DNA of 32,000 bases, from assembly GCA_900234795.1 (NCBI GenBank), contig LT962688.1:4140001-4172000 (forward strand), in the 5' to 3' direction. A program made the position numbers and the translations under genes. The notes under the pieces were generated by a model. The model saw only the letters and a list, made by a program, of their open reading frames with translations. It had not been told where the DNA came from and ran no database searches. Position 1 is the stretch's first letter. Every line of letters begins with the position of its first letter. Positions 17,916 through 28,450 of the stretch are shown here, in pieces. Source of the stretch: Methylorubrum extorquens. GTDB taxonomy: Bacteria; Pseudomonadota; Alphaproteobacteria; Rhizobiales; Beijerinckiaceae.

Positions 17916-18818
17916 TCAGGCTCCGCCGAGCTTGCGGCAGAGCGCGTCGCGCTCCTCGGCGCTGGTGTAGCGGATACGGATCTCGCCCTCCCCGCTAGCC
18001 TTGGCCTTCACCGCCACGCTGTAGCCGAGTGCTCGGCCGAGCACGTCTTCAAGCGAACGCAGGGCGGCATCGCCCTCGGCGGAGCGGCGCGGACGGCCGG
18101 GGCGCGGCGTGTCGTCCTGCGGAGCCTCTGCCGAGGCCAGCGCCTCGACCTCACGCACCGATAGCCCCTCGGCCACGATCCGGCGGGCCACCGCCTCCGG
18201 GTCGCGCACGGAGAGAAGCGCGCGGGCATGGCCGGCGGTGATCTCGCTGGCGATCACCCGGTCCTGAATCGCGGGAGGAAGCTGGAGTAGGCGCAGGGTG
18301 TTGGCGAGATGGCTGCGGCTCTTGCCGAGCAGGTCGGCCAGCTCGGCCTGGGTATATTTGAACTCGCCCATCAGCCGCTCGTAGCCCGACGCCTCCTCGA
18401 TGGCGTTCAGGTCGGCCCGCTGGACGTTCTCAAGGATCGCGTATTCGAGCGAGGTGCGGTCGTCGATCTCGACCACCACCACCGGCACCTCGTTGAGGCC
18501 CGCCCGCTGGGCCGCACGCCAGCGCCGCTCGCCGGCGACGATCTCGAAGGTGCCGGGTACCCCCGAAAGCGCACGAACGACGATCGGCTGGATCACGCCG
18601 CGCTGGCGGATCGAGGCCGCCAGTTCGTCGAGTTCCGGCTCCGAGAAGCGGCGGCGCGGGTTGCGCGGGTTCGGGCGCAGGAACTCCACCGCCACCTTGC
18701 GCTGCGCATGTCCGGCGGTGCGGGCCGCCTCCTCCGGCGCGTCGTCGGAAAAGTCGCCGATCAGCGCCGCAAGGCCGCGGCCGAGCCGCGGGCGCGCCGT
18801 ATCATCCGCCATTGCCAC
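17916..18818 (-). CDS. parB: Chromosome partitioning protein ParB
   Basis: Motifs seen are LGRGLAALIG, IQPIVVR, EIVAGERRWRAAQ, the HTH QAELADLLGKSRSHLANTLRLLQLP, and ITAGHARALL. Confidence 0.95.
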   Translation of the reverse strand: MAMADDTARPRLGRGLAALIGDFSDDAPEEAARTAGHAQRKVAVEFLRPNPRNPRRRFSEPELDELAASIRQRGVIQPIVVRALSGVPGTFEIVAGERRWRAAQRAGLNEVPVVVVEIDDRTSLEYAILENVQRADLNAIEEASGYERLMGEFKYTQAELADLLGKSRSHLANTLRLLQLPPAIQDRVIASEITAGHARALLSVRDPEAVARRIVAEGLSVREVEALASAEAPQDDTPRPGRPRRSAEGDAALRSLEDVLGRALGYSVAVKAKASGEGEIRIRYTSAEERDALCRKLGGA

Positions 18819-18845: not shown

Positions 18846-19706
18846 TTAGGCGGCTGCGGCGGGCGGGGGCGCCCGGCCCTCGCGTTGGATCACTTCGGAA
18901 GCGAGCCGCAGATAGGCCTGCGAGCCGGCGCATTTGAGATCGTAGAGCAGCACCGGCTTGCCGTGCGAGGGGGCCTCCGAGACGCGCACGTTGCGCGGGA
19001 TCATCGTCTCGTAGACCTTGTCGCCCATGAAGCCGCGGACATCGGCGACCACCTGGGTCGAGAGGTTGTTGCGCGGGTCGTACATGGTCAGCACGACGCC
19101 CTGGATCTGGAGCTTGGGGTTCAGGGCTCCGCGAACCTGCTCGACGGTGCGGAGCAACTGGCTCAATCCTTCGAGGGCGAAGAACTCGCATTGCAGCGGC
19201 ACCATCACCGCGTCGGCAGCGGCGAGGGCGTTGATGGTAAGCAGGTTGAGCGAGGGCGGGCAGTCGATCAGCACGTAACTGATCGGTTCGATCCCCTCCG
19301 GCATGGTGAGGTCGCGCAGGATGTTGCGCAGGCGGTGGGCCCGGTCGGAGGCGCTCGCCAGTTCGAGTTCGAGGCCGAGCAGGTCCATCGTCGAGGGGGC
19401 GACCGAGAGGCGCGGCACCGCAGTCGGCGTGATGGCGTCCACCAGCGGGGCCTCGCCGGCCATGACATGATAGGTCGAGACCTTGCGGCGACGGCGATCG
19501 ATGCCGAGACCGGTCGAGGCGTTGCCCTGCGGATCGAGGTCGATCACCAGCACCTGCTCGCCGATGGCGGCCAGCGCCGTGCCGAGATTGATCGCCGTCG
19601 TGGTTTTGCCGACACCGCCCTTCTGGTTGGCGAGCGCGAGCACGCGCAGCGGTTTGGGATGAGCAGGAGCAACCTGCGTCGGTGAGGCCGTGGATGAGTC
19701 GGTCAT
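18846..19706 (-). CDS. parA: Chromosome partitioning ATPase ParA
   Basis: The deviant Walker A motif LANQKGGVGKTTT is present, along with VLVIDLDPQGNAS and DCPPSL. The start ATG at 19706 overlaps the rsmG stop codon (ATGA). Confidence 0.95.
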   Translation of the reverse strand: MTDSSTASPTQVAPAHPKPLRVLALANQKGGVGKTTTAINLGTALAAIGEQVLVIDLDPQGNASTGLGIDRRRRKVSTYHVMAGEAPLVDAITPTAVPRLSVAPSTMDLLGLELELASASDRAHRLRNILRDLTMPEGIEPISYVLIDCPPSLNLLTINALAAADAVMVPLQCEFFALEGLSQLLRTVEQVRGALNPKLQIQGVVLTMYDPRNNLSTQVVADVRGFMGDKVYETMIPRNVRVSEAPSHGKPVLLYDLKCAGSQAYLRLASEVIQREGRAPPPAAAA

Positions 19707-20338
19707 GGGTCCACGCGGGAAAGCGACGTGACGCGCACGATCCGTGCCTGCGAGTCGGTGCGGCTCGGAATCAGGTCGCGGGTGAATGTCCACTCATCCT
19801 CGGCCTCGGTCAATTCCGTGGCTGCATCACGTCCCTTCGGAAACAGCCCGATGGTGCCGCTTGTCAACAAAGGTTCGGTCCAGGCGAGCAGTTGCGAGAG
19901 CGGGGCGAGGGCACGGGCGCAGACGATCTCGGTGTCGGTGAGGGTGCCGATCACCGCTTCGATGCGCGCATTGTGGACAGTGACCGGAGCCCCGGTGAGG
20001 CGCGCCGTCTCGGAGAGGAAGGCGCATTTGCGCGCGTTGCTCTCGACGAGACGGACGTGAAAGCCCGGCCGTTCCTTACCGGCTAGGGCGAGGATGAGAC
20101 CGGGGATGCCGGCACCCGATCCGAGATCGAGCCAGCGGGTCGCCTCGGGGGCGATGCTGAGAAGCTGGAGGGCGTCGGCAATGTGCCGGTGCCAGACCTC
20201 CTTCAGCGTTGCGGGGCCGACGAGGTTTTTGACGGTCTGCCAGCGGGTGAGCTGTGCAACGTAGAGATCAAGAGACGCGGCTGTTTCACGTGAAACATGA
20301 TGCTCGCTGAGGACGCGTGTGCGCAGATCAGTGCTCAT
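19703..20338 (-). CDS. rsmG: 16S rRNA (guanine527-N7)-methyltransferase
   Basis: Motifs seen are VSRET...WQTVKNLV and the SAM motif WLDLGSGAGIPGLILA, plus VESNARKCAFL. The start at 20338 gives MSTDLRTRV. Confidence 0.9.
   Translation of the reverse strand: MSTDLRTRVLSEHHVSRETAASLDLYVAQLTRWQTVKNLVGPATLKEVWHRHIADALQLLSIAPEATRWLDLGSGAGIPGLILALAGKERPGFHVRLVESNARKCAFLSETARLTGAPVTVHNARIEAVIGTLTDTEIVCARALAPLSQLLAWTEPLLTSGTIGLFPKGRDAATELTEAEDEWTFTRDLIPSRTDSQARIVRVTSLSRVDP
20282..20297. other. parS: parS centromere-like site, perfect consensus TGTTTCACGTGAAACA
   Basis: This is an exact 16/16 match to the canonical parS palindrome. It lies inside rsmG, where GTT TCA CGT GAA ACA encodes V-S-R-E-T. Confidence 0.85.
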
Positions 20339-20372
20339 TCTGCCGTCCTCGGGTCGGGGCAGGCCGGCCTTC

Positions 20373-22247
20373 TCATGCCGACGCCTGAACCCGGCCTCGG
20401 CGGGCATGGGCCGCGAGCAGGGTCAGGGCGGCCGGTGTCACGCCCTCGATGCGCGCGGCCTGCCCCAAAGTGGTCGGGCGCACGCCGTCGAGCTTCACCC
20501 GCATTTCGTTCGAAAGGCCGGCGATGGCGCTGTAGTCGAGGGAGGTCGGCAGGCGCACCGCCTCGTCGCGGCGGAAGGCCGTGATGTCGGCCTGTTGTCG
20601 ATTGAGATAGACGGCGTAGGTCGCGTCCGTCCGGAGGCGCTCCGCGACCCGCGAGGGCACCGCTGCCAGTTCGGGCCAGACCGCCGCAAGCCGGTCCCAG
20701 CCGATTTCCGGATAGGACAGGATCTGGAAGGCGCTGCGGCGCAGGCCGTCATGGTTGAGGGCAAGGCCGTGCTGGGCCGCTTCATTCGGGGTGAGGCTCA
20801 GGGTATCGAGCCGGGCGCGTGCCTCGGACAAAGCGGCCTGGGACGCTGCGAAATGCGCGGCCCGCACCGAGCCGACACAGCCGAGAGCTGCGCCGCGGGG
20901 CGTGAGGCGCTCGTCGGCATTATCGACGCGCAAGCTCAGGCGGTACTCCGAGCGGGAGGTGAACATGCGGTAGGGCTCGCTCACCCCGTGGGTGACGAGG
21001 TCATCGATCATCACGCCGAGATAGGATTCGGCCCGGTCGAAGATCGCGAGATCGGAGCCGCCCGCCAGCCGGGCCGCGTTGAGGCCGGCGACAAGCCCCT
21101 GCCCTGCCGCTTCCTCGTATCCGGTGGTGCCGTTGATCTGGCCTGCCAGGAACAGGCCCGGCAGACGTTTGGTCTGGAGCGTCGCGTCGAGTTCGCGGGG
21201 ATCGACGTAATCGTACTCAATGGCGTAGCCGGGACGCAGGATGCGGGTCCGCTCCAGCCCGGGGATGGCGGCGATGATGCCTGCCTGAACCTCTTCGGGA
21301 AGAGCCGTCGAGATGCCATTCGGGTAGACGGTCGGATCGTCGAGACCCTCCGGCTCCAGGAAGATCTGGTGGCCCTCGCGGTCGCCGAAGCGCACGACCT
21401 TGTCCTCGATCGAGGGACAATAGCGCGGGCCGCGGCTGCTGATGCCGCCGGAATACATCGGTGAGCGGTGGAGGTTGGCCCGGATCAGGTCGTGCACCGC
21501 CTGGGTCGTGCGGGTGATGCCGCAGGCGATCTGCGGCGTGGTGATCCGCTCGGTCAGGGTCGAGAACGGCACGGGCTCCGCGTCTGCGTGCTGCATCTCC
21601 AGCGCTGCCCAATCGATCGTGCGTCCATCGAGGCGCGGCGGCGTGCCGGTCTTCAGGCGGCCGAGGCGGAAGTCGTGCCGGTCGAGCGTGCGCGCCAGCC
21701 CCACGGCAGGCTCTTCGCCGACGCGGCCGGCGGGGATCTGCCGCTCGCCGATATGGATGAGGCCGCGCAGGAAGGTGCCCGTGGTGATGACGACGGCCGC
21801 CGCGGTGAGCGCGCGCCCGTCCGTAAGCGTCACGCCCGCCACACGGCCTGAATGCACCGTCAGGTCGTCGGCCTCGCCCTCGATCACGGTGAGTTCCGGG
21901 GTCTCCGCGACCGCCGCCTGCATGGCTCGGGCGTAGAGCGCCCGGTCGGCCTGGGTGCGCGGGCCGCGCACGGCCGGGCCCTTGCGGCGATTGAGCAGGC
22001 GGAACTGGATGCCGGCGGCGTCCGCGACACGGCCCATCAGCCCGTCAAGGGCGTCCACCTCGCGCACGAGATGGCCCTTGCCGAGGCCGCCGATGGCCGG
22101 GTTGCACGACATCGCGCCGATGGTGGCCGCCCGGTGCGTCACCAAAGCGGTGCGGGCGCCGACGCGCGCGGCTGCCGCGGCCGCCTCGACACCGGCATGG
22201 CCGCCGCCGACGACGATAACGTCGTAACTGAAAGAATGGGCGTGCAT
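20373..22247 (-). CDS. mnmG: tRNA uridine-5-carboxymethylaminomethyl modification enzyme MnmG
   Basis: Motifs seen are [50 protein letters not shown] and [17 protein letters not shown]. The product is a full-length 624 aa. Confidence 0.97.
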
Positions 22248-22349
22248 GACCCGTGCTTATGCGCGCGCCATCAGCGAGGTCAACGCAGACCCGCCTCATC
22301 GCCTAGTTTGGCGAGGGCTCGGAGCCTTCGGCCCTGCCCGCTTTTCCGA

Positions 22350-22358
22350 TGTCGGTCC
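22350..22358. repeat. Left copy of the 9-bp direct repeat TGTCGGTCC flanking the inserted module
   Basis: An identical 9-mer recurs at 24084..24092. Together the two copies bracket 22359..24083. Confidence 0.5.
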
Positions 22359-22420
22359 TGCAAAACGCTCCGGTTGCCGCTCAAGCCTGATGGCCGGCGA
22401 AGCGCTTTGTGCGGTTCAGG

Positions 22421-22687
22421 TCAGGCGGCCGACCGGGATGGCTCCGAGGCGGTCGAGGCAAGGGAAGGGCGTATCTGGAGGTCGATGCGGAAGGCCGAGG
22501 ACGTCGCCTCTTCGATCACTTCCAGGGACCACGTATCCCCCAGGGTCAACCGATGGCCCGATTCCTTGAGCAGCGAACCGGCATAGTGGACGGCTGCGCA
22601 CAGGGCCGCGTCCAGATCGGCGCATTCGACCCCGTCGTCATCCACGATGCCGAGGCCGTCGTGCACGTTGAAGAAGTACCTTGGCAT
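22421..22687 (-). CDS. DUF6894-like small protein
   Basis: It starts MPRYFFNVHDGLGIVDDDGVECADLDAALCAAVHYAGSLLKE. That is the characteristic MPRYFF-x-V/I-x-DG...D-x-G-x-E N-terminus of this small-protein family, which is common in Methylobacterium and Bradyrhizobium. The upstream 30 codons of the ORF-track entry lie in AT-rich spacer and were excluded. Confidence 0.65.
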   Translation of the reverse strand: MPRYFFNVHDGLGIVDDDGVECADLDAALCAAVHYAGSLLKESGHRLTLGDTWSLEVIEEATSSAFRIDLQIRPSLASTASEPSRSAA

Positions 22688-22699
22688 GTCGCATTCGGT

Positions 22700-22935
22700 C
22701 ATTGAGCCTAAAGACAAGCAATGATGCCTGATGGCTCGACGCGAATAAAGACTCTGCTCAGCATTTTTTTTGAGCATTTTGTGCTCATATGGCGCAATGA
22801 CAATCTACGCATTTCCAGAAACTGGTCTATTTCTCTCACGATTGGAATAATATGTTACAGCATTTAAGCAAAATAGTTCGCTGCGTATCGCCGGCAATAA
22901 AGTTGCGCAAAATGAAGATATGCGGGGACGAGCAT
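22700..22935. promoter_or_regulatory. AT-rich divergent control region with three TGCTCA/TGAGCA hexamers and a T8 tract
   Basis: This stretch is much more AT-rich than anything else in the window. TGCTCA is at 22755..22760, T8 at 22764..22771, TGAGCA at 22771..22776 and TGCTCA at 22782..22787. It lies between the divergent DUF6894 and PAS-XRE genes. Confidence 0.5.
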
Positions 22936-23055
22936 TCAGTCCGTCGGTCGGGATAGCGGGCGGTTCTCGCAGATCAGCCCGGTTCCCCGGTGAGAGGTGA
23001 GCAAAAATCGCTCAGGCCCTTCCGTATCGCGCAGCCTTCCGGCATCGACCCATCG

Positions 23056-24078
23056 ATGAACGCGGCGGATCTCAGCTTCACCTCGTCCGACTTCCTCCGG
23101 CTTCTGGAAGGTCTTGGCCTCACCGGTAGCTGGGGCTGGACGCTTGCAACGGGGGACCAAGTTTGGTCGCCCGGCCTCTTCCGCCTGCTCGGGCTTGAGG
23201 TCGGCGAGGTCACACCGAGCTATGAACGGCTGATCCAGTTCGTACACCCGGAGGATCGGGACCGGCTCGAGCGAGCGGATGACGTCAGACGCGACGGTTT
23301 GCTCGGCACGCACACGGTCCGTGTGCTGCGCCCCGACGGGGCCCTGCGGATCCTGAACCTTCAGGGCACCGTCTATCACACGCCCGAAGGCCGCCCGCGC
23401 GCGGCGGCCGGCATCGTGCTGGATGTGACGGATCGCGAGCAGATCGCGGCGGCGTTGCGCATGGAGCGCCGTCGCCGATGGGCCCTGTTCGAGGTGCTGC
23501 AATCCTGGTCCAATGCCGCGCTCTATGTCGGCGGGCAGCGGACAGCGTCGCCCGAGATCCTCAGTCTGACCGGTGTGAGCGCGGAGGTGTTCAGGGCCGA
23601 TTGCGACCGGATCGTCGCCCCGGACGACCGCGCCCGCATGCGAGCCCACATTCAGGCCATGATCGCCGAGGGGAAGTCGTTCGAGGTCTCGAAGCGCCTG
23701 CTCTTGGCGGATGGCGACCAGGGCGCGTTCCGCTTTCTTTACACCCCCGTTCGCGACGCCGCGGGGCGCACCGAGACCTGGGCGACCTACGCCTCGCGGC
23801 TCGGTGGCCCAAAGGCTCCTGTCATCGATCCGGTGCGCCGAGGGCTGGTGCAGGGCATCGATGGCAGCCATTTGCGGGCGGCGCGGGCGCTGCTCGGCTG
23901 GTCGATGCAGGATCTGGCTCAGGCGGGCGGGCTGTCCTTCGCCACCGTCCGCCGCCTCGAAGAGAATGCCGGTGGGCGTCGAGCCCACAGCCATGAGAGG
24001 GCCGTCGCCGCGCTTCAGAAGGGCGGGATCGGCTTTCAGATCGTCGAGGGCAACCGGATCGCGCTGTTCCGGCGCTGA
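23056..24078 (+). CDS. PAS-PAS sensor fused to a C-terminal XRE-family HTH (transcriptional regulator)
   Basis: The first PAS is PAS_3-like (GSWGWTLATGDQVWSPGLFRLLG...FVHPEDRDRL...RVLRPDGALR...GIVLDVTDRE). A second, degenerate PAS follows (IVAPDDRARMRAHIQAMIAEGKSFEV...FRFLYTPVRDAAGR). The HTH is LRAARALLGWSMQDLAQAGGLSFATVRRLEEN. An alternative GTG start is at 22990. Confidence 0.7.
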   Translation: MNAADLSFTSSDFLRLLEGLGLTGSWGWTLATGDQVWSPGLFRLLGLEVGEVTPSYERLIQFVHPEDRDRLERADDVRRDGLLGTHTVRVLRPDGALRILNLQGTVYHTPEGRPRAAAGIVLDVTDREQIAAALRMERRRRWALFEVLQSWSNAALYVGGQRTASPEILSLTGVSAEVFRADCDRIVAPDDRARMRAHIQAMIAEGKSFEVSKRLLLADGDQGAFRFLYTPVRDAAGRTETWATYASRLGGPKAPVIDPVRRGLVQGIDGSHLRAARALLGWSMQDLAQAGGLSFATVRRLEENAGGRRAHSHERAVAALQKGGIGFQIVEGNRIALFRR

Positions 24079-24083
24079 GCCCT

Positions 24084-24092
24084 GTCGGTCCC
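24084..24092. repeat. Right copy of the 9-bp direct repeat TGTCGGTCC
   Basis: It sits in the 14-bp gap between the PAS-XRE stop codon (24078) and the mnmE stop codon (24093). It is identical to 22350..22358. Confidence 0.5.
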
Positions 24093-25427
24093 TTATTTGC
24101 CGATGCAGAAGCCGGCGAAGAGGCGGTCCAGCATCTCCTCGACGCCGACATGCCCCCCGACCTCGCCCAGCGCCCGGACGGCGAGCCGGAGATCCTCCGC
24201 CACCAGTTCCGGCGGGAAGCCGGCCGATGCGGTGGCGACGCGGTCGAGATGCGCCGCGGCCCGGGACAAAGCCTCGCGATGACGCTCACGGGTGACGAGG
24301 GCGTCGCCCTGACCGAGGGCAGTTTGGGCCGCGGCCTGGATGGCATCCAACAGCGCATCGAGCCCGGCCCCCGTGACGGCCGAGATGGCGAGGCCGCCCT
24401 CCCCCGGCACCTCCGGCGCGAGGTCGGTTTTCGTGCGAACGAGAAGGACCGGGACGTCTGCAAAGCGCCCCGCGTCGGTCTCGCCGTTCGCCGGCACGAG
24501 ATGGAGCACGAGGTCGGCGCTGCGGATCCGGCTTTGCGTACGCTTGACGCCCTCCGCCTCGATCGCATCCGCCGTCTCGCGCAGGCCCGCGGTATCGACC
24601 AGCACGACCGGTAGCCCGCCAAGATCGCAGCGCACCTCGATGGCATCGCGGGTCGTGCCGGGAATATCGGAAACGATGGCCGCGTCGCGCCCGCTCAGCG
24701 CATTGAGCAGGGTCGATTTTCCGGCATTGGGAGCGCCCGCCAGCACGACGCAAAAACCCTCGCGCAGGCGCTCGCCCCGGCGCCCGTCGGCCAGCGCGTC
24801 TTGGATCGCATCGCGCAAGGCTGTGGCGCGGCCGGACAGGGCGGCGTCGAGGCTGGCGTCATCGACATCGCCTTCATCGGCAAAATCGAGGGCCGCTTCT
24901 GCTCCGGCGAGCAGATCGATGCCGGTCTCGCGCCATGCCGCGACCTGACGGCCGAGGGCGCCGTCGAGCTGACGCAGGGCCTGGACACGCTGCGCTTCGG
25001 TCTCGGCGTCGATGAGGTCGGCGATCCCCTCCGCCTCGGTCAGGTCGATCCGGCCGTTGAGGAAGGCGCGGCGGCTGAATGCTCCGGCCTCCGCCAGCCG
25101 GCAACCCGGCACACCTGAGAGCGCCCGCAGCACGGCGGACCGCACGGCGAGGCCCCCATGCAGGTGCAGCTCGGCCATGTCCTCGCCGGTGGCGGTGGCA
25201 GGGCCCGGCAGCCATGCCACGAGGGCCTGATCGAGGATGTCGCGGGAGTCAGGGTCGCGCAGGCGGCGCAGGGAGAGACGGCGCGGCTCCGGGCGCCCGC
25301 CGGCCAGCCGGTCGAGCGCAAGCCCCGCCGCCGGCCCGCTGATGCGCACCACCGTCACCGCCGCACGGCCGAAGCCGCTCGCCGGGGCGAAGATGGTGTC
25401 GTCGCGGTCGGGAAGGGGTTGGGGCAT
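24093..25427 (-). CDS. mnmE: tRNA modification GTPase MnmE
   Basis: Motifs seen are TIFAPASGFGRAAVTVVRISG, the G1 motif GAPNAGKSTLLNAL, the G3 motif DTAGLRE, and the C-terminal FCIGK. The start at 25427 gives MPQPLPDRDD. Confidence 0.95.
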   Translation of the reverse strand: MPQPLPDRDDTIFAPASGFGRAAVTVVRISGPAAGLALDRLAGGRPEPRRLSLRRLRDPDSRDILDQALVAWLPGPATATGEDMAELHLHGGLAVRSAVLRALSGVPGCRLAEAGAFSRRAFLNGRIDLTEAEGIADLIDAETEAQRVQALRQLDGALGRQVAAWRETGIDLLAGAEAALDFADEGDVDDASLDAALSGRATALRDAIQDALADGRRGERLREGFCVVLAGAPNAGKSTLLNALSGRDAAIVSDIPGTTRDAIEVRCDLGGLPVVLVDTAGLRETADAIEAEGVKRTQSRIRSADLVLHLVPANGETDAGRFADVPVLLVRTKTDLAPEVPGEGGLAISAVTGAGLDALLDAIQAAAQTALGQGDALVTRERHREALSRAAAHLDRVATASAGFPPELVAEDLRLAVRALGEVGGHVGVEEMLDRLFAGFCIGK

Positions 25428-25517
25428 GGTGCTGAACGCTGTCCCGCCGCCGCGCCTCATTCCTCTTGCGGGGGAGAGACGCGGCAGCCGCGAGACCTGT
25501 TTTATGCGAGAGGCCGG

Positions 25518-28145
25518 TCAGACCACCAGATTGACGATCCGCCCCGGCACGACGATGACCTTGCGCGGGGCCCGGCCTTCGAGGGCGCGTTGCACCGGTT
25601 CCAGGGCCAGCGTCGCCGCCTCGACGGCCTTGGCGTCCGCATCGCGCGGAACGGTCACGTCCGCCCGCTTCTTGCCGTTGATCTGGACCGGAAGGGTGAT
25701 CTCATCCTCGACCAGCAGCGCCTGATCGGCCACCGGCCAAGCCGTCTCGGCGACGAGCCCCTTCCCGCCCAGCACGCGCCAGGATTCCTCGGCGAGATGC
25801 GGCATCATCGGTGCGATGAGCTGCACGAGGATGCGGGCCGCCTCGCCCGCCGCGGCCTTCGAGGCACCTCCGCGCAGGCCCTCGTCGAGGGCGTTGGCTA
25901 GGGTGTAGATGTGGGCCACGCAGCGGTTGAAGCGCAGGCGCTCGATATCCTCGCCAACGGCGGCGAGCGCCTTGTGGGCGGCCTTGCGCAGGGGAGCATC
26001 GGCGGTGCCGCCGGGCCCGTTCGCGGCCGTCGCGCCGTGGACGAGGCGCCAGACGCGCTGCACGAAGCGGGCCGCACCCTGCACGCCCTCTTCGGTCCAG
26101 ATCACATCACGCTCGGGCGGCGAGTCGGAGAGCATGAACCAGCGCGCGGTATCAGCGCCGTAGCTGGCGATGATGTCGTCGGGGTCGACGACGTTCTTCT
26201 TCGACTTCGACATCTTCTCGGTCGGGCCGATCTCGATCGGTTCGCCGGTTTTCACGTGAAATGCCTTGCGCGCTCCGTCTTGCGTCTCGAAGCGAATCTC
26301 GGCGGGCGGCGTCCAGGCGCCGGCCGCATCCTTGTAGGTCTCGTGGACGACCATGCCCTGCGTGAACAGGCCCGCAAACGGCTCGGACACCCCGGACCAG
26401 CCCGTCGCCTGCATCGCCCGCATGAAGAAGCGCGAGTAGAGCAGGTGCAGGATCGCGTGCTCGACACCGCCGATATACTGGTCCACGGCCAGCCAGTGAT
26501 CGACCGTCTTACGGTCGGTCGGCGCGTCGGCGAGCCAGGGCGCGGTGAAGCGGGCGTAGTACCAGGACGAATCGACGAAGGTATCCATGGTGTCGGTCTC
26601 GCGCCGCGCCGCCGCGCCGCAGCGCGGGCACGGCACTTGACGCCACGCTTGGTCCCGCTCCAGCGGGTTGCCGGGCTGGTCGAACGAAACCTCGTCCGGC
26701 AGCTTCACCGGCAGGTCTTCCACCGGCACCGGCACCGGGCCGCAGGCCTCGCAATGGATGATCGGGATCGGGCAACCCCAGTAGCGCTGGCGCGACACGC
26801 CCCAATCGCGCAGGCGGAACTGGACCTTCCGGCGGGCGACCGGGGCATCACCCAGCGTCTCGCCCTCGAGGCGGTCGGCGACGGCCTTGAACGCGTCGTC
26901 GGTGGTCATGCCGTCGAGGAAGCGCGAATGGATCATCCGCCCGTCCCCGTCATAGGCGGTGTCGGTGATGAGGAAGGCGTCCGGGTCCTGGCCCTCGGGG
27001 CAGACCACCGGCGTGTTGCCGAGCCCGTACTTGTTGGCGAAGTCGAGGTCGCGCTGGTCGTGGGCCGGGCAGCCGAACACGGCGCCGGTGCCGTACTCCA
27101 TCAGCACGAAGTTCGCGACGAAGACCGGCAGCTCCCAGGACGGATCGAGCGGGTGGCGCACCGTGAGTCCGGTGTCGAACCCGAGCTTCTCCGCCGTATC
27201 GATCGCCTCCTGCGCCGTGCCGATGCGGCGGCACTCCTCGGCGAAGGCTTGCAGCTCCGCGGCCTTCGGGCCGGATTCGGCCAGCGCCCGGGCGAGCGGG
27301 TGATCGACGGAGATCGCCAGGAACTTGGCGCCGAACAGCGTGTCGGGGCGGGTGGTGTAGACCGTCACCTCGTCCGTGCCGGCGAACGGCGCGGCGAGGG
27401 CGAAGCGCACCTCCAGCCCCTCCGAGCGGCCGATCCAGTTGCGCTGCATCAGCCGGACCTTTTCCGGCCAGCGCTCCAGGCCGTCGAGGGCGTCGTGCAG
27501 ATCCTGCGCGAAATCGGTGATCTTGAAGAACCACTGGGTCAGCTCGCGCTGCTCGACGAGCGCGCCCGAGCGCCAGCCGCGCCCGTCGATCACCTGCTCG
27601 TTGGCGAGCACGGTGTGATCGACCGGGTCCCAGTTCACCTTCGCCGTGCGGCGGGTGACGAGCCCCTTGCCCAGGAAGTCGAGGAACATGCGCTGCTGGT
27701 GCTTGTAGTAGTCGGGATCGCAGGTCGCGATCTCCCGGCTCCAGTCCAGCGACAGGCCCATGCTCTGGAGCTGTCCGCGCATGGTGGCGATGTTGGCGTA
27801 GGTCCACTCCCGCGGGTTGACCTTGCGCTCCATGGCGGCGTTCTCGGCCGGCAGGCCGAAGGCGTCCCAGCCCATCGGGTGCAGCACGTTGTGGCCCTTG
27901 GCACGCTTGTAGCGGGCCACCACGTCGCCCATCGCGTAGTTGCGCACATGGCCGATATGGATGCGCCCCGACGGGTAGGGGAACATTTCCAGCACGTAGT
28001 ATTTGGGGCGGGGATCGTCGTTCTTCGTCTCGAACAGCTTGGCCGCATCCCAGGCCTGCTGCCAGCGCGGCTCGGCGTCCTTGGCGTTGTAGCGCTCTTG
28101 GTGGCGCTCCTGCGCGGTCGGGGAGGGCTGTGCGGAATCGGTCAT
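25518..28145 (-). CDS. leuS: Leucine--tRNA ligase
   Basis: The HIGH motif ([15 protein letters not shown]) and the KMSKS motif (EKMSKSKKN) are present, along with the CP1 editing domain and a zinc-like CPRCG. The start at 28145 gives MTDSAQPS. Confidence 0.97.
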
Positions 28146-28450
28146 CGGGAGCGCCGGGATCAGCGGAAAAGGGAGTGGCCGCACGCAACGGTGTCGCGGG
28201 GCCGAAGCCCGGCACGTAGCATATCCGTGCGGCCAAGGGTCAACGCTCGGCGCGGTTCAGATCTGCTGATAGACTGCCACCACGCGATCGGAGCGGCGCC
28301 TGCGCGCGTTGGGCCTGGGCGTCGGTGGGCGTATCGAACATCGGCGGGGCTTCTCCGCTCGAATCGGGAGAGGCCAGATATCGCCGGCGCGAAGCTGGGA
28401 AACACGCCACGACCCTTGAAGTCGCGTCTGCGCCGCCGCAAGGAGGGCCC

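Follow-up and report, generated by a model that had tools for sequence, protein, structure and literature searches.

The window analysed here, 32,000 nt of Methylorubrum extorquens contig LT962688.1, carries two genes between mnmE and mnmG, and the question raised by this locus is how they came to lie there and whether they work together. One encodes a small protein of the DUF6894 family and the other, transcribed divergently from it, encodes a regulator with two PAS domains and an XRE-type helix-turn-helix (HTH), referred to below as PAS-XRE. An earlier note on this DNA had placed these two genes in the gap from 22247 to 24093, and both open reading frames (ORFs) were confirmed by their Pfam domains, as was the gap, with a spacing of 1845 nt. 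The same note had read a 9-bp direct repeat in the flanks as the target-site duplication of an insertion. The reading favoured here, at a probability of about 0.6, is that the two genes form an old accessory cassette that was gained once and has since descended vertically, that the 9-mer is a chance match, and that the PAS-XRE protein regulates the DUF6894 gene and its own gene via palindromes located between them.

Distribution and age of the cassette

A scan with MnmE, using one genome per species, yielded 80 loci with 92% to 50% identity. In 53 of these, mnmE is followed by a co-linear mnmG, and the full module is present at three of the 53 junctions (L005, L006 and L007), with the DUF6894 gene alone at a fourth (L001, Leaf123). 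The other 49 co-linear junctions, found in Methylobacterium, Microvirga and Hyphomicrobiales, are without the module and have a median gap of 141 nt, which bears out the view that the genes were added to this junction. Further carriers were identified via look-ups of PAS-XRE orthologs (L174, L175/176 from M. populi, L177 and L178), and all have the same order, namely rsmG, mnmG and DUF6894, then PAS-XRE, mnmE and leuS.

In a neighbour-joining tree built from mnmE and mnmG, the carriers fall in one Methylorubrum-type group, for which the bootstrap as a whole is low. The bootstraps of deep nodes are unreliable owing to rooting, and only well-supported shallow clades were used. Loci without the module are nested within the carrier group, with M. 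aminovorans (L004) grouped with L178 (bootstrap 96%) and Leaf456 (L008) with Leaf118 (L007; bootstrap 95%). Leaf123, which has the DUF6894 gene but not the regulator gene, is grouped with L177, the window and L174 (bootstrap 100%). Relics were found at several of these sites. Leaf123 retains three blocks corresponding to the 3' end of the PAS-XRE gene, an internal piece of it, and the intergenic region through DUF6894, while M. aminovorans retains two small PAS-XRE pieces and strain R2-1 (L003) a single piece of 17 nt. Given these relics and the nesting, the empty sites inside the clade are therefore secondary.

The regulator gene has also been damaged in place. In L174 (GCA_054300855.1), a close M. 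extorquens relative, a 1-nt deletion at window position 23763 removes the HTH (L174:3501-4634), and a frameshift in the PAS-XRE gene of Leaf118 has the same effect (L007:8373-9385). For other M. extorquens strains, HTH-only PAS-XRE fragments of 76 and 68 aa and a shortened version of 297 aa are on record.

The synonymous divergence (dS) of both module genes parallels that of mnmE and mnmG across all pairs. The ratio of nonsynonymous to synonymous divergence (dN/dS) lies between 0.12 and 0.32, being 0.17-0.32 for the DUF6894 gene and 0.12-0.25 for the PAS-XRE gene, and both genes are therefore under purifying selection. Taken with the PAS-XRE relics at empty sites within the clade, this parallel in dS indicates one old gain followed by several losses and does not support a recent event. 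This pattern indicates that the cassette was gained once, by an ancestor of the Methylorubrum-type Methylobacterium clade, and passed on by vertical descent. As judged by the empty sites and broken genes, it has since been deleted independently at least four times, and the regulator has in addition been inactivated in several cases; the cassette is dispensable. A total of 85 full or partial homologs of the PAS-XRE protein were found, and those with an organism name are all from Methylobacterium or Methylorubrum. Since this family is lineage-restricted and has several paralogs per genome, the gene most likely began as an intragenomic duplicate. The route by which the cassette arrived is no longer recoverable.

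On the mnmG side, homology between the gap and the empty sites in L002, L003 and L004 is confined to a promoter-like block directly upstream of mnmG (Table 1). The block is kept in eight of nine aligned loci, whether the module is present or absent, and is not evident in L007. It marks the mnmG-side limit of the inserted DNA, and its retention suggests that mnmG is still transcribed from a promoter of its own and that its leader is very short.

The premise that mnmE and mnmG normally stand in an uninterrupted block does not hold in Methylobacterium, where the junction is often broken. It is a recurrent breakpoint there (L022:8318-11780, L017:8294-12603 and L010:8339-11700). The insert in L022 is 3.46 kb long and encodes a 747-aa Trypsin_2-Endonuclease_NS fusion protein; L017, L033, L035 and L049 have the mnmG-rsmG-parA-parB block in the opposite orientation with respect to mnmE. 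Of the loci for which all 7 kb of downstream flank is available, about a dozen have no mnmG within that distance of mnmE. Within the 302-nt gap of Leaf456 (L008:8468-8772), CCTCATCCTGAGG ... CCTCAGGATGAGG forms a long, GC-rich inverted repeat resembling a repetitive extragenic element, and no convincing genes were found in the mnmE-mnmG gaps of intermediate size in L016 and L050.

Candidate operators and the probable link between the two genes

The case for a regulatory link is drawn from the 368-nt region between the two genes, in which the GC content drops to 41% from a local level of ~65-75%. Two sites, O1 and O2, are the sole matches in the 32 kb to the palindrome TGAGCA-N5-TGCTCA at two or fewer mismatches, and both lie in this region; across 1.24 Mb from other loci, the background rate is 0.027 per kb. 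All nine orthologous loci have O1 at the corresponding position, and no 17-nt window of the intergenic alignment is better conserved (0.83 versus a mean of 0.41); O1' (identity 0.67) and O2 rank third and fifth. O1 is most degenerate, with 2 mismatches, in Leaf123, where the regulator is deleted, and in Leaf118, where the HTH is frameshifted. O2 sits 42 nt upstream of the PAS-XRE start and is found at the homologous position in five of the nine loci (two or fewer mismatches); that of L177 is conserved but more degenerate. One sigma-70-like site is predicted on the DUF6894 strand, versus 0.2 expected, and O1 overlaps its second hexamer. An 11-bp spacing of half-site centres suits a dimeric HTH protein, as XRE-type regulators are.

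A dimer of the PAS-PAS-XRE protein would therefore be a fitting ligand for these palindromes, whose half-site centres are 11 bp apart. With O1 overlapping the predicted promoter of the DUF6894 gene and O2 preceding the regulator gene, the regulator would control both DUF6894 and itself. The PAS domains would sense a signal that sets the activity of the regulator, and the output under its control would be DUF6894, a small stand-alone protein with its own function. The divergent arrangement is retained in every carrier, out to a dS of ~0.8-1.2, and the pair is probably a local regulatory unit.

Two further features of the intergenic region were recorded. A third half-site, TGCTCA, is located at 22755-22760, 10 nt before O1. 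It pairs with the first half-site of O1 in a weak hairpin that precedes a T-run, a structure marked by the scan as terminator-like on the + strand. The AT-rich region was also considered as a replication origin, and this was ruled out by close relatives that are without the entire region.

Several points weigh against the favoured reading. The palindromes could be bound by another factor, and no O1-type palindrome was found upstream of the PAS-XRE paralogs, though their HTH is well conserved. O2 is undetectable in L006 and L007. The predicted DUF6894 promoter is a consensus match only, with a first hexamer that is conserved in close relatives only. The DUF6894 gene is intact and constrained where the regulator has been lost (L001, L174 and L007), showing that any coupling is not obligatory, and the repeated loss of the regulator speaks against an important role. 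Some of the frameshifts in the PAS-XRE gene, for their part, could be assembly errors.

The most serious alternative, though an unlikely one, is that the two genes are unlinked neighbours, which arrived together or successively, and that the palindromes are bound by an unrelated regulator. Co-occurrence of the two gene families, proposed earlier as a check, was not seen beyond this site, as no DUF6894 neighbour occurs at any of six PAS-XRE paralog loci (two from M. terrae, the other four being metagenomic relatives, full-length or partial) and no PAS-XRE neighbour at any of the 13 other DUF6894 loci. Persistence of DUF6894 after loss of the regulator, and the paralogs that have no similar palindrome, would likewise be expected of unlinked genes. 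The divergent arrangement held in every carrier over so long a divergence, the same palindrome before both genes, and the degeneration of O1 where the HTH is gone nevertheless argue for a link, as does the tendency of DUF6894 genes elsewhere to adjoin a gene for a sensory transcription factor. Hence, the functional pair put forward in the earlier note is supported by a conserved divergent arrangement with shared conserved cis-elements, but not by co-localisation elsewhere. No DUF6894 gene was present in the 1.18 Mb and 0.3 Mb of other DNA retrieved.

The neighbour seen at other DUF6894 genes is of another type. A Crp/Fnr regulator gene lies within ~2 kb of DUF6894 in eight of the 13 independent other loci (L083, L084, L086, L179, L180, L181, L183 and L184, the remainder being L087, L090, L182, L185 and L186). 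These eight are from M. iners, a metagenome scaffold, Roseomonas nepalensis, four Methylobacterium plasmids and a Microvirga plasmid. The plasmids pNYY1_3 (52 genes) and pNYY1_2 (67 genes) each have a single Crp/Fnr gene and a single DUF6894 gene, and these are direct neighbours. Neither FNR/FixK-type boxes nor shared palindromes were found upstream of the other DUF6894 genes.

This proximity raises a second alternative, in which the DUF6894 protein would not be merely a regulated target but a protein-level partner or modulator, such as an anti-regulator or co-sensor, of the adjacent sensory transcription factor, which is PAS-XRE here and Crp/Fnr elsewhere. The frequency of nearby Crp/Fnr genes and the sole pairs on the two plasmids are in its favour, as is the nature of the protein: it is small, consists of one domain without a match to any enzyme-like fold, and comes from a large stand-alone family. 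On the other hand, DUF6894 is under purifying selection where no intact PAS-XRE protein is made, and PAS-XRE and Crp/Fnr proteins differ in a way that is hard to fit to one specific protein interface, making this alternative distinctly improbable. A broader proposal, offered tentatively and regarded as possible rather than likely, is that the DUF6894 family (more than 12,000 clusters, mostly 75-130 aa) serves sensory transcription factors of the cytoplasmic one-component kind, as their dedicated partners or as their outputs; most often the partner may be of the Crp/Fnr type, with PAS-PAS-XRE taking its place in the Methylorubrum lineage. If so, the mnmE-mnmG cassette would be one case of a widespread, undescribed module made up of a sensor regulator plus DUF6894.

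A toxin-antitoxin or addiction pair, with the XRE HTH protein as antitoxin or repressor and the small protein as toxin, is highly improbable: XRE HTH domains are common in antitoxins, and sub-threshold matches to a Y4mF/HipB-type antitoxin (E=0.0014, 18.5 bits versus a cutoff of 71.65) and to capH (weak, E=1.7e-4) were obtained, but the genes are divergent and not a co-directional operon, neither protein matches a toxin or defence family in Pfam or in the defence and toxin-antitoxin libraries, and a repressed toxin would not tolerate the state of L001, L007 and L174, in which DUF6894 is intact and the regulator deleted or frameshifted.

The 9-bp direct repeat

The earlier note had described identical 9-mers on either side of the two genes. 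Two identical copies of TGTCGGTCC do exist, but the second lies at 24083-24091 and not at 24084-24092 as had been given. This copy serves as the 3' arm of a weak hairpin (24069-24088) resembling a terminator and falls within the 14-nt spacer that separates the convergent stop codons of the PAS-XRE gene and mnmE. The 9-mer is not a common genomic word, a possibility that had been raised, as it occurs twice in 32 kb versus 0.4 times expected. Under the strictest post-hoc definition, in which a 173-nt flank is compared with a 14-nt flank, the chance that the flanks share any 9-mer is 1.2%, and it rises to 4-10% if the right flank is taken as 30-60 nt. Between 22200 and 24150, 19 directly recurring 9-mers were counted (~15 separate repeats of at least 9 nt).

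The comparison with relatives is decisive. The 9-mer is at neither junction in seven of eight related loci with module genes (L001, L005, L006, L007, L176, L177 and L178), and L174, the closest, with 96.6% identity across the junction, has the mnmE-side copy only. Empty sites with a single 9-mer, as an insertion would predict, were sought, and the 9-mer was found in none of 49 co-linear junctions without the full module. Position 22352 is a C in L174, L177 and L178 and a T in the window; the repeat was thus completed by a recent C-to-T change, derived and specific to the window strain. A genuine target-site duplication is most perfect in the ancestor and decays afterwards. This repeat became perfect late, and its history is therefore the opposite of that of a decaying target-site duplication. 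In addition, Leaf123 is without a stretch of ~32 nt around the mnmG-side 9-mer.

The earlier statement that no transposase, integrase or terminal inverted repeat is present was confirmed by scans for ORFs and repeats. Between 22248 and 24092 there is no transposase or integrase ORF, the only credible ORFs being those of DUF6894 and PAS-XRE, and no terminal inverted repeats lie directly inside the 9-mers. The nearest inverted repeats (22366-22378 / 24049-24061 and 22314-22326 / 24071-24083) are 13 nt long, imperfect and non-terminal. The first pair has one arm within the coding sequence of PAS-XRE, an inverted-repeat left arm is unconserved in L177, and 69 comparable imperfect pairs occur in 1.95 kb. 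No second genomic site for the module was found, with all orthologs in the genome and assembly collections lying between mnmE and mnmG; for this check the genome of the window strain itself was represented by the 32-kb window only.

As judged by these comparisons, the 9-bp direct repeat is a chance match. That a mobile module was recently inserted and made TGTCGGTCC as its target-site duplication would agree with a 9-mer that has just two copies in 32 kb, one per flanking gap, with the 1.2% figure, and with the module being an addition relative to outgroups, but it can be given hardly any credence when the interval holds no mobility gene or terminal inverted repeat, the 9-mer pair is unique to the window among carriers and missing from all 49 empty co-linear junctions, T22352 is derived, the mnmG-side copy falls within the stretch that Leaf123 lacks, the dS of the module parallels that of its flanks, and every ortholog occupies one site. 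A false lead is thereby removed, there being neither a target-site duplication nor a hidden mobile element.

Gene products, neighbouring features and comparison with known systems

The coordinates of the cassette, of its candidate regulatory sites and of the surrounding genes are listed in Table 1. The protein encoded by mnmG is identical to M. extorquens SOR31020.1. The longest rsmG ORF shares 35 nt with the 3' end of mnmG, whereas RsmG is annotated as 211 aa without overlap in L174, L177 and L178, and the true start is probably further downstream than in the 234-aa ORF. No RNA family matched anywhere in the window at Rfam gathering thresholds.

Table 1. Positions of genes, protein domains and sequence elements in the 32,000-nt window
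Feature	Position	Strand	Remarks
parB	17916-18818	-	
parA	18846-19793	-	
rsmG	19703-20407	-	longest ORF, 234 aa
mnmG (gidA)	20373-22247	-	Pfam GIDA, E=5e-164
Promoter-like block	22248-22289	-	42 nt; TTGACC-N17-ATAAGC (GCGTTGACC-N17-GCATAAGC), then ~9 nt to mnmG ATG
9-mer TGTCGGTCC, mnmG-side copy	22350-22358	+	perfect in window strain only
DUF6894 gene	22421-22687	-	88 aa; Pfam PF21834
Divergent intergenic region between DUF6894 and PAS-XRE genes	22688-23055		368 nt; composition profile, ortholog alignment
O1	22771-22787	.	perfect palindrome TGAGCA-N5-TGCTCA, candidate operator
Predicted sigma-70-like promoter of DUF6894 gene	22776-22803	-	TTGTCA-16-CAAAAT, consensus scan
O1'	22813-22828	.	GGCAAAAAnTGCTCA in relatives, degenerate in window (TGGTCT)
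O2	22998-23014	.	TGAGCAAAAATCGCTCA, 1 mismatch, candidate autoregulatory operator
PAS_3-PAS_4-HTH_3 (XRE) regulator gene	23056-24078	+	340 aa; Pfam
PAS_3 domain	~23164-23415	+	80.8 bits
PAS_4 domain	~23545-23790	+	40.5 bits
HTH_3 domain	~23872-23967	+	27.1 bits, cutoff 23
9-mer TGTCGGTCC, mnmE-side copy	24083-24091	+	inside 14-nt spacer between convergent stop codons
mnmE (trmE)	24093-25460	-	Pfam TrmE_N, MnmE_helical, MMR_HSR1
leuS	25518-28184	-	

The DUF6894 protein matches PF21834 with E=4e-16 and 59.3 bits (cutoff 24.1) over profile positions 1-68 of 69. It begins with the conserved MP(R/K)YFFN, its orthologs align from M1, and the 88-aa sequence matches WP_245438405.1, named as M. zatmanii. 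A confident AlphaFold2 model (mean predicted local distance difference test score, pLDDT, 86.5) has the order strand-helix-strand-strand. In Foldseek searches with this model, no match fell below E=0.5 in the PDB or below E=0.05 among the viral structures of BFVD, and a profile search of PDB sequences gave spurious helical-repeat matches only. A tautomerase or dodecin fold, prompted by the invariant Pro2 and the order of strands and helix, was considered and rejected, with 4-oxalocrotonate tautomerase and dodecin absent from the Pfam matches at E<=1, from the PDB sequence matches and from the top 50 Foldseek matches listed. At E<=0.001 the family numbers 12,130 cluster representatives, and almost all are stand-alone proteins of 73-130 aa. 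Exceptions matched by the profile are a 3527-aa protein with 13 matched stretches (P0211) and a 193-aa protein with two (P0207). In the literature, no paper was found that mentions DUF6894.

The PAS_3, PAS_4 and HTH_3 domains of the regulator all exceed the Pfam gathering cutoffs, and no further domain is present. Its start was placed at ATG 23056 and not at GTG 22990 because all full-length homologs are ~340 aa, and the resulting protein is identical to M. extorquens SOR31022.1. The closest solved PAS domains match at E=2e-8 or weaker, and the LOV-type NCRFL motif is absent from the translation by inspection. A literature search retrieved nothing relevant on PAS/XRE in Methylobacterium and no characterised member of the family. 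When metagenomes were scanned with a PAS-XRE alignment, 76 of 80 loci matched the C-terminal part only, and three to four full-length relatives were found. The last 60-70 residues (AARALLGWS...TVRRLE...) match stretches in many soil and aquatic metagenome contigs (L098-L173), apparently in small XRE-type HTH genes. It is thus the fusion to PAS domains that is specific to the lineage, whereas this type of HTH is widespread.

The analysis dates a gene gain specific to this lineage and maps it, in a model methylotroph, to the conserved mnmE-mnmG-rsmG-parAB block. The cassette is narrowly distributed and dispensable, which limits its wider importance. It does provide a regulatory hypothesis that can be tested in the genetically tractable M. 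extorquens at candidate operators O1 and O2, and the natural loss-of-function variants of the regulator offer a comparison. The proximity of DUF6894 and Crp/Fnr genes is the more general lead and a possible first handle on a large family.

Set beside known systems, the module shares with transposon and insertion sequence (IS) insertions the extra DNA in a conserved gene junction and a 9-bp direct repeat in the flanks, but it is without transposase and terminal inverted repeats, the repeat is unconserved, and the module is found at a single site and is vertically inherited. Its DUF6894 protein has the N-terminal MPRYFF motif of the Pfam family together with D10, D16, G19 and E21, and differs from the family at large in that its ortholog group is bound to the mnmE-mnmG site and to the PAS-XRE gene. 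In several databases the PAS-XRE protein is named as a histidine kinase, and its PAS_3 domain does resemble the PAS domains of FixL and other sensor kinases. However, neither HisKA nor HATPase_c was detected at E<=0.01 and the C-terminus is an HTH, which rules out a sensor histidine kinase; the label is an annotation carry-over. As judged by its domains, the PAS-PAS-XRE protein is a cytoplasmic one-component regulator. Like other such regulators, it has its sensory part, here two PAS domains, joined directly to a C-terminal HTH_3 without transmitter or receiver domain, and its own divergent promoter region contains a candidate operator, a palindrome whose half-sites are spaced 11 bp apart; the protein is set apart from them by the PAS_3-PAS_4-HTH_3 architecture, which among named matches occurs only in Methylobacterium and Methylorubrum.

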